This document shows positions 1 through 48,207 of a stretch of 64,000 bases of DNA, piece after piece. The stretch comes from a virus (Duplodnaviria > Caudoviricetes). Numbering within the stretch: position 1 is the stretch's first letter; each line of letters begins with the position of its first letter. The stretch is from positions 1-64,000 of the IMG/VR virus record IMGVR_UViG_3300047272_000250. One strand, 5' to 3'. The position numbers were made by a program, and so were the translations under genes. The notes beneath the pieces are model-generated. The model saw only the letters and a program-made list of their open reading frames with translations, made no database searches and had not been told where the DNA came from.

Positions 1-50
1 AAAAGAAGGGAAAGTCAAGAGCGGTGTGTGGTGGAACTCTTGACCCTCCC
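1..50 (-). terminator. Hairpin plus U-tract directly after tRNA-Asp (likely intrinsic terminator, 15-nt loop)
   Basis: GGGAGGGTCAAGAG pairs with CTCTTGACTTTCCC (14 bp, 2 G-U), followed by TTCTTTT. Confidence 0.65.
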
Positions 51-52
51 AG

Positions 53-125
53 CGATCTCAAAGGGAAATTGAACCCTTACTTCCACTTCGACAGAGTGGT
101 GTGCGTACCTCTACACTATGAGACC
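53..125 (-). tRNA. tRNA-Asp(GTC), no encoded CCA
   Basis: Acceptor GGTCTCA/TGAGATC, anticodon arm CCACT-CTGTCGA-AGTGG, T arm AAGGG-TTCAATTT-CCCTT. Confidence 0.9.
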
Positions 126-476
126 TTATTTATTTTTTGGCTTATTGATTGATCGCATGTACGTTCTGTGTCTATGACAGTTTGAACAAACAATCTCACA
201 TTTTTCTATCTCTTGCTTTATCTTATCAAGACCAACATTTTTATGAGCATTGCCACCTATCTGAAAGCTTTTATCAGACAAATGATCAAAGTCTAGAACG
301 TGTGGCGGATAAGATATCCCGCAATCAGTACAAACAGAATTTGCTAGCTTATAGTCCCTTATGTAGGTTCTATTCTTATTACGTCGATCTTTTGTACGGG
401 CTTGCGTTAATTCTTTATTTCTTTCGTACCAAGCTTTTTGTGCTGCTTTTTGTGCTAATGGATCTTTATATGGCAT
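126..476 (-). CDS. HNH endonuclease (Zn-binding CxxC type)
   Basis: CTDC...FDH...CSNCHRHRT motif with a basic N-terminus; stop codon abuts tRNA-Asp +1. Confidence 0.85.
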   Translation of the reverse strand: MPYKDPLAQKAAQKAWYERNKELTQARTKDRRNKNRTYIRDYKLANSVCTDCGISYPPHVLDFDHLSDKSFQIGGNAHKNVGLDKIKQEIEKCEIVCSNCHRHRTYMRSINKPKNK

Positions 477-482
477 GGTTCA

Positions 483-512
483 ATTATAGCATTAAGTTTG
501 AACCATTGTCAA
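483..512 (-). promoter_or_regulatory. sigma70/SigA consensus promoter giving a leaderless HNH transcript
   Basis: TTGACA-18 nt-TATAAT with extended TG; ATG lies 6 nt downstream. Confidence 0.85.
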
Positions 513-521
513 TATTAATGT

Positions 522-549
522 TGAGCCTTTTTTACACATGCTCAGGTGT
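522..549 (-). other. Small predicted H-type pseudoknot in the 3' UTR
   Basis: ACAC-CTGAGCAT-GTGT-AAAAAAG-GCTCA: stem 1 ACAC/GTGT, stem 2 TGAGC/GCTCA. Confidence 0.45.
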
Positions 550-559
550 TGTAGTAATA

Positions 560-1621
560 CTACTTGATTAGTGCAACCTTAGCCTTTGGATGAGCCTTGT
601 TCCACTTTGTAGCAAGTGCGTTGTACTTAGCCTTGTATGCTGCGTTAGCAGTTGCAAGTGCTAGGTCAGATGCTGCCTTTGCTGTTGCTGCTGCAGTTGT
701 TGCTGTTGCTGAATCGCTTGCACGACCAGCCTTTTCTGCTGATAGCGCTGCTTCTGCAGTTGTCTTTGCTGCGTTTGCTGCTGCTAGTTGTGCAGTAAGT
801 GATGCAACCTGTGCATTAAGTGCAGTGATTGTTCCATTAAGATCAGTAACTGCAAATGTTGCAACTGCTGACTTTACTGGTGCTGCTAGACCTGTAACTG
901 CTGTAGCAGATGAAGCACCTGTTACTGCAACTGTTACTGTTCCTGCAACTGCTGGTGCAAGCTTCTCAGCCTTTGCTCCCAATACCAATGTTGAGTCTGC
1001 TGTAACCTGAGCTGCAGTAGATGTCAAGATTGACTTTGAGATTGAAAGGTCTGCCCAAGTTGCTCCAACTAGAGTAGCCGTTACTGTTTCTCCGCCAACT
1101 GGGTTGCCGAATACGTCAGTAATGTTAACTGATACAGATGGGATTGTTCCAACTGCTGTTGTTGACGGGACACTCACGCCAACGTTGTAGGCTGCTCCTG
1201 CAATACCCTTTACATAAACAACTGTTGAATATGCACCATTTGTAATGGTTACAGATCCTGTTGCTGTTCCTGTTGTGAATGCATAAACTGTAACTGCTGA
1301 ACCTGCAGAAGTTACTGAATATGCTGTTGCTCCTGCTGCTGCTGTTACTGGAGCTGCTGATGTAGCCAAAGCGGTTACAAGCTTAACTCCTCCTGCTGCA
1401 ACAAAAGAAACTACTGTTCCTGTGTCGGCAGTAGCTGCGATTGCAACTGCATCTGCTGAATCAACAGAGTTATCTGCTGGAACATTTGCTGTCGCTGGCG
1501 CCGTTGCCGTTGTTGTGTTTGCTGAACCAGCAACTGTTACCGCAAGCGGTGCAGCATTAGCTGATGTAGCAAGTGTTGTAGCGGCAAGTACTGCTGCTAC
1601 GATAAGTGATACTTTCTTCAT
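560..1621 (-). CDS. Secreted Ala/Thr/Val-rich Ig-like surface protein (S-layer-like) with C-terminal coiled coil
   Basis: Signal peptide MKKVSLIVAAVLAA...ANA, Big-like TDVFGNPV motif, basic C-terminus. Confidence 0.65.
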   Translation of the reverse strand: MKKVSLIVAAVLAATTLATSANAAPLAVTVAGSANTTTATAPATANVPADNSVDSADAVAIAATADTGTVVSFVAAGGVKLVTALATSAAPVTAAAGATAYSVTSAGSAVTVYAFTTGTATGSVTITNGAYSTVVYVKGIAGAAYNVGVSVPSTTAVGTIPSVSVNITDVFGNPVGGETVTATLVGATWADLSISKSILTSTAAQVTADSTLVLGAKAEKLAPAVAGTVTVAVTGASSATAVTGLAAPVKSAVATFAVTDLNGTITALNAQVASLTAQLAAANAAKTTAEAALSAEKAGRASDSATATTAAATAKAASDLALATANAAYKAKYNALATKWNKAHPKAKVALIK

Positions 1622-1682
1622 ATCTGTTTTTTATTTCCTTTTCTCTATATAGATTTGTGGAAATACCCTTTCGGATATACCG

Positions 1683-1756
1683 CTGGCCTGGAATGATTCG
1701 AACATTCAACCTGTCGATTAACAGTCGACTGCAACTACCGATTGTGCTACAGGCCA
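1683..1756 (-). tRNA. tRNA-Asn(GTT), no encoded CCA
   Basis: Acceptor TGGCCTG/CAGGCCA, anticodon arm GTCGA-CTGTTAA-TCGAC, T arm GAATG-TTCGAAT-CATTC. Confidence 0.95.
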
Positions 1757-1772
1757 TCAACGTGACAATATA

Positions 1773-1802
1773 ACTATATCAAACTGATACAGTACCTGGC
1801 AA
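1773..1802 (-). promoter_or_regulatory. Promoter for tRNA-Asn and the surface protein
   Basis: TTGCCA ... TGATATAGT. Confidence 0.55.
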
Positions 1803-1816
1803 GTCTTTTTTAATTA

Positions 1817-2344
1817 TTAATTTGAAGAATATTTTCCACCACGACGCTTATATTCTGCTACCACCCAAGCATTTGCTACTGCAGATGGATATACATCGAA
1901 TTTACGCTTGGCTTCTGCCTTAACTCTTTCATAAAGTTCTTTATCTGAAGGAGATCCTTTTCTAGGCTTAATAATGTTTCCATAGTTTGGCTTAGATGCT
2001 TTTGTCATTACTGGACTAAACATACCACTCCAACCTAGTGGGCTTTCATCTCCATCTAAAACCGCTTCTCTTTCTTCTCCCATGAGTCCTGGATCTGAGT
2101 CCATAGACTTATTCATAGCATCACGACATTCTTCACAGTCATGATCTTCTCCAATTCTAGGATCATCTTCATCCATAGACTTGCTTTCTTCCGCTGCATT
2201 AGATGCATAAATAGCTGCTTGCTGATTCTGTGCTGCTTGTCTTGTTGTATGGCAACCGTGAACCTTACCTGTATCCCCAACTACTGGATAACCCTTGCAA
2301 CCATGAGTACCCTTACCACCAATTGTATATCTACCTTTAGGCAT
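1817..2344 (-). CDS. Hypothetical two-domain phage protein
   Basis: N-terminal GCH..RQAA..Q.AAI motif; C-terminal YPSAVANAWVVAEYKRRGGKY motif; stop/start coupling with upstream gene. Confidence 0.7.
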   Translation of the reverse strand: MPKGRYTIGGKGTHGCKGYPVVGDTGKVHGCHTTRQAAQNQQAAIYASNAAEESKSMDEDDPRIGEDHDCEECRDAMNKSMDSDPGLMGEEREAVLDGDESPLGWSGMFSPVMTKASKPNYGNIIKPRKGSPSDKELYERVKAEAKRKFDVYPSAVANAWVVAEYKRRGGKYSSN

Positions 2345-2583
2345 TATTTTCCCTCTTCCAATAACTTGTTTAATTCTTCATCCATATTGTATGAAAACGA
2401 TTCTGCAATCGCTTCATCTAGCATATCATCTAAAATGACTTCCAAGTTAGATATAATCTGCTGGGCTAGCAGTGGATCTTTGTACGATATTTCCATATCA
2501 AAGAGGTCATTACACCTCAAGCTGATGTTTATAGTTCCGTCATCATCTTGAAATCCGCTCATCTGGAAATTAAGACCGTCCAA
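2344..2583 (-). CDS. Hypothetical acidic protein
   Basis: TTG start after AGGGG; TAATG overlap with the next gene. Confidence 0.6.
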   Translation of the reverse strand: MDGLNFQMSGFQDDDGTINISLRCNDLFDMEISYKDPLLAQQIISNLEVILDDMLDEAIAESFSYNMDEELNKLLEEGK

Positions 2584-2635
2584 TATTAGCCCCTATCGAC
2601 TTCATATCTAATTCTACCATGCTTAATACCTCATG

Positions 2636-2766
2636 AAAAGGGGGTCGTATATACCTGCGATTTCCATTAGCACATGACGTAGCTGAACTTCCATCTTCAT
2701 CCGAACTCATTACCGAGCTAGGGTGGTATTCGTAACTATAGCATCCTAAGAATGTATATACGACCC
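2636..2766 (-). ncRNA. Candidate structured ncRNA directly 3' of tRNA-Ile
   Basis: 13-bp perfect closing stem GGGTCGTATATAC/GTATATACGACCC enclosing about 100 non-coding nt, followed by TTTT. Confidence 0.55.
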
Positions 2767-2769
2767 TTG

Positions 2770-2844
2770 TCCGCCAGGTTGGATTTGAACCAACGATTCA
2801 TACCTTATAAGAGTATTTCCAAAACCAAACTAGGATACTGGCGG
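2770..2844 (-). tRNA. tRNA-Ile(TAT), no encoded CCA
   Basis: Acceptor CCGCCAG/CTGGCGG with discriminator A, anticodon arm ATACT-CTTATAA-GGTAT, T arm GTTGG-TTCAAAT-CCAAC. Confidence 0.9.
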
Positions 2845-3237
2845 TTTATTTAAATATTTTTTAGCACTATCCAATAAATTAATATCATCATTTAAAAGAC
2901 CTATTGCAGTATTGCAATTACTACATAATACACCACGTATACATTTTCCGCAAGAGAACGTATTATCATTGCAGCATTTATGGTCGTGATCTATATGCTT
3001 TGCATCATTTACTTTACATATCCAGCATTTTCCATTATATTTACTAAGCATTTTATCGTAGGCCTCTTTTGTTGTGTGATGCCTTTTAAATCTTCTTGGA
3101 TCATAGCCCAATATTTCATTATCTTTAGCTCTTTTATTCCTACGATATTCATTAGCTGCTAGCCTACATTTATCACAGGGTTTTTCTTTATTTGCGCCAT
3201 GAGTTATATAACCTGAATAAGTTCCACAATTTACCAT
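2830..3237 (-). CDS. Endonuclease VII-family (His-Me finger) nuclease, probable homing endonuclease
   Basis: CWIC...HIDHDH...IRGVLCSNCNTAIG motif; ATG at 3237 is 6 nt from TGATATAAT (leaderless); last 15 nt overlap tRNA-Ile. Confidence 0.88.
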   Translation of the reverse strand: MVNCGTYSGYITHGANKEKPCDKCRLAANEYRRNKRAKDNEILGYDPRRFKRHHTTKEAYDKMLSKYNGKCWICKVNDAKHIDHDHKCCNDNTFSCGKCIRGVLCSNCNTAIGLLNDDINLLDSAKKYLNKPPVS

Positions 3238-3243
3238 ATACAC

Positions 3244-3252
3244 ATTATATCA
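3244..3252 (-). promoter_or_regulatory. Extended -10 promoter
   Basis: TGATATAAT. Confidence 0.7.
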
Positions 3253-3272
3253 TAAAAAATGTATCATAATAG

Positions 3273-3301
3273 AAAGGTGGTAGGAAAATCCTACCACCTT
3301 T
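3273..3301. terminator. Intrinsic terminator, possibly bidirectional
   Basis: Perfect inverted repeat AAAGGTGGTAGGA-AAA-TCCTACCACCTTT. Confidence 0.85.
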
Positions 3302-3306
3302 GTCTA

Positions 3307-3621
3307 CTATTCTGCGTTCTTATCTATCTTAGAAAACGCTGCATTAATTTCTGATGCAGATAGCTTTCCATCATCGAGGAATGCTCTAGCTAGTCTTTCT
3401 ACTACTGTAGCGACTCCAAGAGTTCCCGCCAAAATTACAGCCTTCATGGTATCAATTCCAACAAGGGAACCTGCACCAATCACAGATAGTCCAGATGCTG
3501 CGAATACTGCAACAATTCTCATGAGAATGTTCCAGATATTAGTAACCGCTGATGAACCAATTACCTCTTCGCCTGTTGTAGGATCAGTTACGGTAATGTC
3601 AATTTCTTTCTTCTTTGCCAT
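3307..3621 (-). CDS. Small membrane protein (2 TM) with EF-hand-like DDGKLSASE
   Basis: Two hydrophobic stretches; GGGAG RBS. Confidence 0.75.
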   Translation of the reverse strand: MAKKKEIDITVTDPTTGEEVIGSSAVTNIWNILMRIVAVFAASGLSVIGAGSLVGIDTMKAVILAGTLGVATVVERLARAFLDDGKLSASEINAAFSKIDKNAE

Positions 3622-46846: not shown

Positions 46847-48169
46847 TTAGTAAATGTCACGGACGCTGAGGAAATGCCCGCCCCACTTATTGTTATTTTT
46901 TGTTATTTTAACATCTGACCCGTCCAGATCAGAAGACTTTTTGATTGCTGTTTCGCTCTCAACACCATCTACACGCTTCTCAACTGATGAGATATGTGCC
47001 TTGATATTATTAACGACCTCTGCGAGTTCGTTGTACTTTGTTGTAACTTCTGCAATCTTTGCATCAACCTGAGTAGTAAGATTAGATACTGCCTCCGCTG
47101 TTGCTGTTTTTGTAATTTCCGCTGAGAAGAATGCCTTCATGTCATCAAACATCTTTGCAAAATCAGTTTCTTCAACTTCTACTTCCGCTACTGGTGCGCT
47201 TGCTTCTTCAGCTGGCGCAGCTGCTTCTTCTGTAGGTGTTGCTTCCTCCGCTGGTGCTGCTGGTGCTTCCTCAGCATCTGCAGACTTTGTGAGTTCAGCT
47301 TCAGTTACCTCTTCGACGTTAGCTACTGCTTCTGCCGTTACTTCGTCCTGTGTTATTGTTGCTTCTGCCACAGTAACACCTCCTTCGGTATTTGAATTAT
47401 TTTGCTCAGACTTTTCGACAGTCTCAGACAAAACACCTCTCGATTGCTTGTATGCATCAAGAATTCTGTTGATTTCGTTTGACTTATTTGTGTCAGATGT
47501 TTCTACCCAACCAATGTTCTCAAGAACTCTGTCTGTTGTTGGTGACTTAAATTCTGATTCCTTAGAAAGGAAAACTTCATCTGAAGTTGAATCATAAAAA
47601 ATGTTTTCTACTTGTACATCTGCTGCAATACCAGAAAATGTATTTCCGTCTGCAGTCTTCTGAATTGAAAAAATATTTGAAAGCTGATTTGCTGGATTGT
47701 CTACTAGTGAAAGTTCTGTAAGATCGTATTCCTTGATAACACGAATTGACTTATCCATCTCAGAGTTAAATTCATTATCGGTCTTCTTTACATTCCCGCC
47801 GATTGAGAATCCTGAAAGAGTTCCATCAAGAACTTTCTCCCATGTATCTTGTGCGCCCTTTGAAACATATACGTCTACGAATATTCCGTTGTGCTCCTTG
47901 CCAGTCTTTTTATCGAAGAATGTTTCCTTGCGGAATGAAACCATCTTGCCTACTGCAAGTGGTGTGTGCATTTCACGGATGTTTCCACGGAAGTTTTCAA
48001 ATGCTTTTGTTGACGCATCTGCGGCGACGATATCACCGTGCTGATCAATATTATCTAGGGTAGCAAAGCCAGAAACGAGTCTACGTTCTTTGTCGACTTT
48101 AGCGATAGGCATTGACAGTCTGAGACTATCCCCATCACTGTACCAATTTGATTTGATTATTTCAGTCAT
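46847..48169 (-). CDS. HK97-type prohead protease with scaffold extension
   Basis: GFSIGG, ELSLVDNPAN; acidic Ala/Glu-rich coiled-coil C-terminus; leaderless after TGCTAAAAT. Confidence 0.92.
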   Translation of the reverse strand: MTEIIKSNWYSDGDSLRLSMPIAKVDKERRLVSGFATLDNIDQHGDIVAADASTKAFENFRGNIREMHTPLAVGKMVSFRKETFFDKKTGKEHNGIFVDVYVSKGAQDTWEKVLDGTLSGFSIGGNVKKTDNEFNSEMDKSIRVIKEYDLTELSLVDNPANQLSNIFSIQKTADGNTFSGIAADVQVENIFYDSTSDEVFLSKESEFKSPTTDRVLENIGWVETSDTNKSNEINRILDAYKQSRGVLSETVEKSEQNNSNTEGGVTVAEATITQDEVTAEAVANVEEVTEAELTKSADAEEAPAAPAEEATPTEEAAAPAEEASAPVAEVEVEETDFAKMFDDMKAFFSAEITKTATAEAVSNLTTQVDAKIAEVTTKYNELAEVVNNIKAHISSVEKRVDGVESETAIKKSSDLDGSDVKITKNNNKWGGHFLSVRDIY

Positions 48170-48207
48170 AAGCTTATTTTAGCAACGTTTTTGTATAAAT
48201 ACCAAAA

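Follow-up and report, generated by a model that had tools for sequence, protein, structure and literature searches.

Free-standing nuclease genes in phage tRNA regions have been described in coliphages. The tRNA cluster of T4 harbours segB, a gene that T2L, RB1 and RB3 lack and whose product cuts tRNA genes at the T-psi-C motif (PMC2330249). Maturation of tRNA-Arg cleaves between the last codon of segB and its stop codon, which was proposed in 2008 to act as a brake on expression (PMC2330249). In its passages on T5, the same source describes HNH nucleases of the tRNA cluster whose expression is lowered by processing of the primary transcript (PMC2330249). A 2026 study found SegB homologs to be significantly co-localised with tRNAs and reported that tRNA genes acting against host defence can be amplified by SegB (PMC13096335). 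Here we analyze the first 64,000 bases (bases 1-64000, hereafter the window) of the 104,393-base IMG/VR record IMGVR_UViG_3300047272_000250, a lake phage genome in which an HNH-type nuclease gene abuts a tRNA-Asp gene and an endonuclease VII (EndoVII)-type gene runs into a tRNA-Ile gene. Our results suggest that both genes are free-standing, probably homing-type selfish cassettes inserted between a tRNA promoter and the first base of the tRNA (+1), a reading to which we assign a probability of roughly 0.7.

Like T4 segB, each is a free-standing nuclease gene in a phage tRNA region that is absent from the homologous regions of relatives, and each open reading frame (ORF) ends at the 5' boundary of a tRNA (0 and -15 nt here), a likeness in geometry alone. 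SegB is a GIY-YIG enzyme, whereas both window nucleases are of the His-Me finger type (HNH and EndoVII-type) and are not members of the SegB family. SegB comes from a coliphage, whereas the two WhiB genes of the lake phage point to an actinobacterial host. Each window cassette has its own consensus promoter, from which a leaderless mRNA is predicted; segB has no mapped promoter nearby. The window cassettes sit between +1 of a tRNA and the promoter belonging to that tRNA, whereas segB lies between the tRNAs of a single operon. The motif recognised by SegB is T-psi-C; the window nucleases are known from their sequences. The T5 nucleases F-TflI, F-TflII and F-TflIV are likewise HNH-type ORFs in a phage tRNA cluster, a likeness taken from the source's description of them and involving another host and phage type. 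By analogy, the window cassettes may work like the SegB and T5 cases, the control by tRNA processing at a stop codon having already been proposed for T4. This would extend the T4/T5 coliphage phenomenon to abundant uncultured freshwater actinophages and to two different His-Me families.

Two nuclease cassettes and their empty alleles

A 127-base terminal repeat marks the record as a circular assembly, with a G+C content of ~40% and eight distinct tRNA genes. All genes of the tRNA/nuclease region lie on the minus strand. Transfer RNA genes were called by ARAGORN and Rfam, and both tRNA-Asp and tRNA-Ile fold as cloverleaves. The two cassettes, with their flanking elements and a comparator unit, consist of the following features.

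1..51, minus strand: terminator-like hairpin closing the HNH/tRNA-Asp unit, 15-bp stem and U-rich tail
52/53-125, minus strand: tRNA-Asp(GUC), found by ARAGORN and Rfam
476 to 126, minus strand: HNH-type nuclease ORF, 116 aa, TAA at 128-126
483..512, minus strand: HNH cassette promoter, TTGACA-18-TG-c-TATAAT, 12/12 consensus matches plus TG
1682..1802, minus strand: comparator tRNA-Asn unit without nuclease, tRNA at 1756-1682, TTGCCA-18-(TG)TATAGT at 1802-1773
2636..2766, minus strand: structured element directly after tRNA-Ile, 13-bp closing stem, then U-tract
2769/2770-2844, minus strand: tRNA-Ile(UAU), found by ARAGORN and Rfam
3237 to 2830, minus strand: EndoVII-type ORF, 135 aa, TAG at 2832-2830
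3244..3269, minus strand: EndoVII cassette promoter, TTATGATACA, N4, TTATGATATAAT, with the extended -10 TGATATAAT at 3252-3244
3262..3306, minus strand: terminator-like hairpin after the upstream 104-aa gene, 12-bp stem and U-rich tail, -21.4 kcal/mol, z -6.8

The HNH ATG (476) lies 6 nt downstream of its -10 box, and the EndoVII ATG (3237) 6 nt past the extended -10. An earlier note on this DNA had described two unrelated nucleases that start 6 nt after an extended -10 and run into a tRNA, and the coordinates reproduce this to the base. As that note had stated, the HNH TAA is the last triplet before tRNA-Asp +1 (125), a stop-to-tRNA distance of 0, and the ORF and tRNA coordinates place the EndoVII TAG 15 nt inside tRNA-Ile, at nt 13-15. 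The first 15 nt of this tRNA read as the codons P-P-V-S plus stop.

The HNH product matches PHROG HNH families (E 1e-24 and 3e-23) and carries the residue pattern CxxC...DH...N...CxxCH. Its match to the PDB HNH protein 4h9d is weak (E 0.06), and Pfam HNH models gave no match to the 116-aa protein at E<=0.01. The EndoVII-type protein belongs to PF02945 (60.8 bits against a cut-off of 23.6, residues 54-133), matches PHROG endonuclease VII families (E 9e-23) and aligns to residues 9-73 of the T4 EndoVII structure 1e7d (E 7e-6). As in T4 endonuclease VII (gp49), a PF02945 protein, the zinc cysteines and the catalytic motif H-x-D-H-D-H ... C-N align. The His-Me finger residues of the T4 D40/H41/H43/N62 region are present, with HIDHDH and CNTAIG conserved. 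Unlike gp49, the protein has 135 aa and an extra N-terminal CGTYSGY..H...C..C module, and unlike that core resolvase its gene is accessory and patchily distributed.

The insertion point becomes visible in nuclease-free relatives. Filled loci were obtained by nuclease or tRNA searches and empty loci by a terminase search, in which at least 600 stretches matched; the phage family is abundant in lake metagenomes. Among GenBank phages, megablast with window positions 1-3600 found no match. The relative G002 (104.5 kb, 85% complete, terminase 81% identical to that of the window genome) has no homolog of the HNH or the EndoVII-type protein. Whole-genome blastn of the window's genome (G000) against G002 covered 64%, a divergence that prevents a full list of indels. 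At the tRNA-Asp locus of G002, 45 nt with a hairpin and TTAACA-16-TATAAA separate the stop codon of a 353-aa gene homolog from tRNA-Asp. Downstream of the tRNA the two genomes are nearly identical, terminator included, and the hairpin at 1..51 (-23.4 kcal/mol, z -5.5) is conserved in G002; within tRNA-Asp the first 11 nt are conserved and the body has diverged. An exact-pattern search of viral contigs for the window's tRNA-Asp allele gave no hit, and no second such HNH/tRNA-Asp unit was found.

EndoVII is missing from six close relatives (L065, L067, L068, L074, L078 and G002; terminase 81-86% identical), in which the stop of the 104-aa gene is followed by TAGACA-17-TATAGT, 13 nt, tRNA(CAU) and the structured element. 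The window keeps TAGACA at this site and continues with a terminator, a promoter, EndoVII and tRNA-Ile(UAU), and homology returns just 3' of the tRNA. This former -35 survives at the 5' edge of the hairpin at 3262..3306, which is predicted to insulate the EndoVII cassette from upstream.

A second context is found in a larger lineage (terminase 66-69% identical), where a small 83-aa gene follows the terminase. The 3' end of this gene holds TTGACA-18-TACAAT in empty alleles, with tRNA(CAU) ~8-11 nt later. Filled alleles keep TTGACA-18-TACAAT, and the cassette begins ~3 nt past the -10, with TTATGAKACA ... TTATGATATAAT-N6-ATG, EndoVII and then the tRNA. The tRNA-Ile(UAU) also stands without nuclease in L162 and in L163, where TGCTATAAT precedes it by 11 nt. 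The comparator tRNA-Asn unit shows the nuclease-free layout within the phage genome itself, with its own promoter directly upstream. The nucleases occupy the 8-13 nt that separate the -10 from tRNA +1 in nuclease-free relatives. Since filled alleles retain the old promoter and start after its -10, the cassette sits between the tRNA -10 and +1 and has brought its own promoter. The earlier note's picture of mobile nucleases in the tRNA 5' leader is borne out here: they are dispensable, patchy and located between -10 and +1 of relatives, and alleles with the promoter directly upstream of the tRNA exist for both.

A further claim of the earlier note, that the nucleases share the tRNA promoter, is not borne out as worded, because each has its own promoter that moves with the gene across contexts; at the window EndoVII gene a terminator lies upstream, and of the former tRNA promoter nothing continues past the -35. 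TGnTATAAT-N6-ATG is found at both nuclease genes, within the -10-to-start spacing of 6-7 nt that serves as the criterion for actinobacterial leaderless mRNAs, and neither gene has a Shine-Dalgarno site. Both mRNAs are predicted to be leaderless, with transcription starting at the A of the ATG. Leaderless mRNAs are translated well by actinobacterial hosts. The EndoVII promoter and the N6-ATG spacing recur in all 7 homolog loci inspected, regardless of upstream sequence. The HNH type of TGnTATAAT-N6-ATG recurs in L020, L022 and L036; other HNH homologs have a Shine-Dalgarno site within a tRNA operon instead of this leaderless arrangement.

Each window unit reads terminator, promoter, nuclease ORF, tRNA, terminator. 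We found no convincing coding-strand promoter match inside either nuclease ORF of the window and no conserved -10-like hexamer in the 3' ends of EndoVII homologs, and an internal tRNA promoter is disfavoured by these sequences. With no further promoter in sight, the most likely source of the tRNA is co-transcription from the nuclease promoter.

We propose the following course of events for the homing-type cassettes. Each would have inserted precisely between a phage tRNA promoter and the first base of the tRNA. In genomes that lack it, the nuclease would cut in or close to the promoter/tRNA junction, a site disrupted in its own genome by the insertion, and repair would copy in the cassette, at times along with the tRNA allele linked to it. 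When RNase P cleaves at tRNA +1, the HNH message would terminate immediately past its stop codon, and the EndoVII message would lose its stop codon; nuclease output may in this way be limited by tRNA processing.

Link to tRNAs and distribution

The positional link to tRNAs holds for homologs of both nucleases. All close EndoVII homologs (15/15, 70-80% identical) lie directly upstream of a tRNA. Tabulated across them, the stop-to-tRNA distances are -15, -10, 0 and +26 nt: 11 loci have -15 nt with the same tRNA-Ile(UAU), EndoVII of L055 overlaps a different tRNA-Ile(UAU) by 10 nt, in L161 its own TAA abuts +1, and in L050 and L054 it ends 26 nt before a divergent tRNA(CAU). EndoVII homologs thereby precede three different tRNA sequences, in at least three genomic contexts. 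A more distant homolog (48-50% identical) with the same kind of leaderless promoter lies 86 nt before tRNA-Gly. A tRNA-like stretch between the L116 nuclease and tRNA-Gly was considered as a third variant-tRNA case and rejected, as Rfam recognises no tRNA there. Among 39 loci with HNH homologs, a tRNA lies no more than 3 kb away in 18, tRNAs are immediate neighbours in ~14, and 10 end between -51 and +6 of tRNA +1, seven of these ten lying between tRNA-Asp and tRNA-Glu.

On a terminase tree with 56 tips, the 8 EndoVII-positive genomes require 7 parsimony changes, against a mean of 7.6 for shuffled labels, and the nearest neighbours of each of the 8 are empty. The distribution of EndoVII is patchy and does not follow terminase phylogeny, in a sampling that is biased by how the loci were fetched.

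The protein itself has been kept. IDHDH and CNTAIG are invariant across 11 EndoVII homologs, and the median dN/dS is 0.18 at a dS of ~1.3, where synonymous sites are saturated. The invariant motifs and the low ratio indicate a protein kept active, and the high dS indicates that the copies are old. By these measures the EndoVII-type nuclease is under purifying selection and maintained functional.

Several observations weigh against homing-type cassettes. The synonymous sites of EndoVII are saturated and the flank identities show no co-conversion tract, so that neither gives a sign of recent homing. Patchiness could come partly from recombination between terminase and the tRNA locus or from repeated loss, and the sampling is biased in that filled and empty loci were obtained by different searches. 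Strong purifying selection is compatible with a domesticated function as well. For HNH a single empty allele was found, and no HNH relative closer than 60% identity. The stop-to-tRNA geometry is generic in these phages and is therefore not readable as a nuclease adaptation; the 15-nt overlap is dispensable, to judge from the sequence of L161.

The natural allele series is unusually clean, comprising empty alleles, the 15-nt overlap, a stop abutting +1 and a 26-nt gap in two genomic contexts. It suits questions about the cut sites, about a limit on expression by tRNA processing and about the exchange of tRNA alleles. The last is topical, as phage tRNAs counter host defences that target tRNAs (PMC13096335).

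Alternative explanations

A stronger version of the cassette model, in which selection has made the nuclease/tRNA fusion an expression switch that limits itself and that also drives the turnover of tRNA alleles, is tentative, and we hold it to be unlikely. One transcript would then give either a mature tRNA or a full-length nuclease, as RNase P takes away the stop codon of EndoVII or trims the HNH message at its stop. The target of the nucleases would be the junction between promoter and acceptor stem in tRNA alleles without a nuclease. If true, such a switch would explain three observations: the different tRNA alleles of nuclease-bearing genomes, including the replacement of tRNA(CAU) by tRNA-Ile(UAU), the fast variation of the tRNA(CAU) acceptor stem, and the conservation of the nuclease-linked tRNA-Ile. 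The latter keeps 97-100% identity between lineages with terminases only 66-68% identical, against 72-87% for their canonical tRNA(CAU), which has 19 sequence variants in 60 loci.

Some further observations concern these tRNAs. By eye, tRNA(CAU) variation falls mostly in the acceptor stem, with the D and anticodon arms conserved. The conservation of tRNA-Ile(UAU) contrasts with the saturated synonymous sites of the adjacent EndoVII gene (L056-L064 and L159-L161 versus L065-L144). The window genome has two tRNA-Ile(UAU) and no tRNA(CAU), and G002 has one tRNA(CAU) and no tRNA-Ile(UAU). The tRNA(CAU) possibly decodes AUA as a lysidine-type tRNA, in which case the CAU/UAU swap would be iso-functional; compared with annotated E. 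coli tRNAs for typing as Met or Ile2, its best matches are Thr and Lys tRNAs at ~75% identity. The idea that tRNA-Ile(UAU) is a recently captured host tRNA was dropped, as 185,579 prokaryote genomes contain no exact copy.

Plain compaction would make the nucleases ordinary accessory genes of a variable tRNA-rich region, their tight stops a by-product of packing that has nothing to do with tRNA targeting or processing. Much of the geometry fits this. In 184 distinct tRNA contexts of relatives, counting ORFs of at least 50 aa, an ORF stops 0-10 nt short of +1 in 57 and runs into the tRNA in 24, and most of these 81 contexts involve non-nuclease families. An 83-aa family (n=34) ends 6-26 nt before +1 (31/34 at 6-11 nt), a 107-aa family (n=28) ends from 10 nt inside the tRNA to 7 nt before it, and a 503-aa family (n=6) mostly shows a 23-nt overlap. 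In the phage genome itself, non-nuclease ORFs end 1 nt before tRNA-Gly +1 and 5 nt before tRNA-Arg +1. The 5' parts of tRNAs also supply stop triplets (TAG at positions 8-10 or 13-15, TAA in the anticodon loop), every frame that enters tRNA-Ile stops within 45 nt, and L161 does without an overlap. Stops that abut or overlap tRNA 5' ends are thus routine in these genomes and are no nuclease signature, and the earlier note's suggestion that two instances of this geometry point to a general nuclease strategy is weakened. What compaction accounts for poorly is position: EndoVII is found immediately before a tRNA whichever of at least three genomic contexts and three tRNA sequences is involved, in two contexts the edge of its insertion is no more than a few nt away from the -10/+1 interval, the HNH family recurs within tRNA arrays of unrelated contigs, and two unrelated nuclease families behave alike, as known homing nucleases do. 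We consider compaction improbable.

As a side observation, the 503-aa gene overlaps tRNA(CAU) by 23 nt in several relatives (L105, L106, L108, L110-L112 and L115), the deepest conserved overlap seen for an ordinary gene.

Domestication is quite improbable. Here EndoVII would serve the phage as a branch or Holliday-junction resolvase or as a packaging helper with terminase, or would exclude competitors, and its position at the tRNA would reflect co-expression. T4 gp49 and HNH-terminase pairs are models for a packaging or resolvase role. The homology to the T4 EndoVII resolvase and the position of the gene after the large terminase gene and the 83-aa gene in the larger lineage are in line with this, as is the invariant catalytic core, long kept active with a dN/dS of 0.18 at saturated dS; such purifying selection is also expected for an actively homing nuclease. 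EndoVII is, however, absent from most relatives, including a near-complete genome, and across the terminase tree its occurrence cannot be told from a random one. It tracks the tRNA rather than the terminase: in the window and L064, where the terminase is 3 kb away, it is still directly before a tRNA. An obligatory two-gene unit of EndoVII and tRNA-Ile was rejected, because the tRNA stands alone in L162 and L163 and the nuclease precedes a different tRNA in L050 and L054.

Promoter repeats and neighbouring elements

The HNH promoter carries an inverted repeat (AUGGUUCAA / UUGAACCAU) that flanks its -10 and includes the AUG. In read-through RNA it would form a 9-bp hairpin with the AUG paired (-9 kcal/mol, z -2.5). 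A similar promoter with a covarying inverted repeat lies upstream of the HNH ATG in L020, L022 and L036. The arms covary from GGTTCA/TGAACC in the window (470-515) to GGTTC/GAACC in L022 and GTTCGA/TCGAAC in L036. At the EndoVII-like gene of L116 (L116:8640-8690), an inverted repeat AGCTCA/TGAGCT brackets the -10 and runs into the ATG. The 5' arm of the nuclease-promoter repeat resembles the tRNA T-loop motif (GGTTCAA, GTTCGAA). From its sequence, the repeat could act as an operator, form a hairpin that blocks translation of read-through RNA, or be what is left of a target site.

The genes for I-TevI, I-TevII, I-TevIII and Aeh1 MobE, homing nucleases of T4 introns or of the free-standing kind, combine, as far as the source describes them, a sequestering hairpin with an internal promoter (PMC2330249), and the HNH promoter likewise lies in a hairpin loop, with the predicted transcription start beyond the 5' arm. 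By analogy, the shared logic would be that only transcripts from the gene's own promoter are translatable. Unlike in those systems, this would be achieved by a 5'-terminal AUG on a predicted leaderless mRNA rather than by an unmasked Shine-Dalgarno site.

The motif TGNTATAAT occurs 12 times on the coding strand and twice on the opposite strand. A third predicted leaderless start belongs to a 440-aa ORF (48169-46847, minus strand), which is preceded by TGCTAAAAT-N6-ATG (48169-48184). As this ORF has the same N6-ATG spacing, leaderless starts appear to be a feature of the phage and not of the nucleases alone.

The N-terminal module of the EndoVII-type protein (CGTYSGY..H....K..C..C, residues 5-41) has its match (E 2e-7) in the C-terminal portion of WhiB-like PHROGs. 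All close homologs share this module, which probably binds DNA and sets target specificity.

The structured element at 2636..2766 probably ends the tRNA-Ile transcription unit. This ~130-nt element matches no Rfam family and is present in filled and empty alleles alike (window, L065:11009-11100, L074:4486-4580, L146:12150-12248 on the minus strand, and L064). Its core TTAGGATG-N1-3-TAGTTAC is invariant across 5 relatives in the alignment, and its closing stem varies between genomes (GGGTCGTATATAC, CCCCATATGG, GCCCCACAG), with a U-tract after it. A 46-aa ORF within the element (2710-2570) is unlikely to be a gene.

Between tRNA-Asp and the homolog of a 94-aa ORF, G002 has a 161-aa ORF (L146:9320-9805, minus strand) that is not in the window, another accessory insertion beside a tRNA. 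By eye its product resembles the pyrimidine-dimer DNA glycosylase family.

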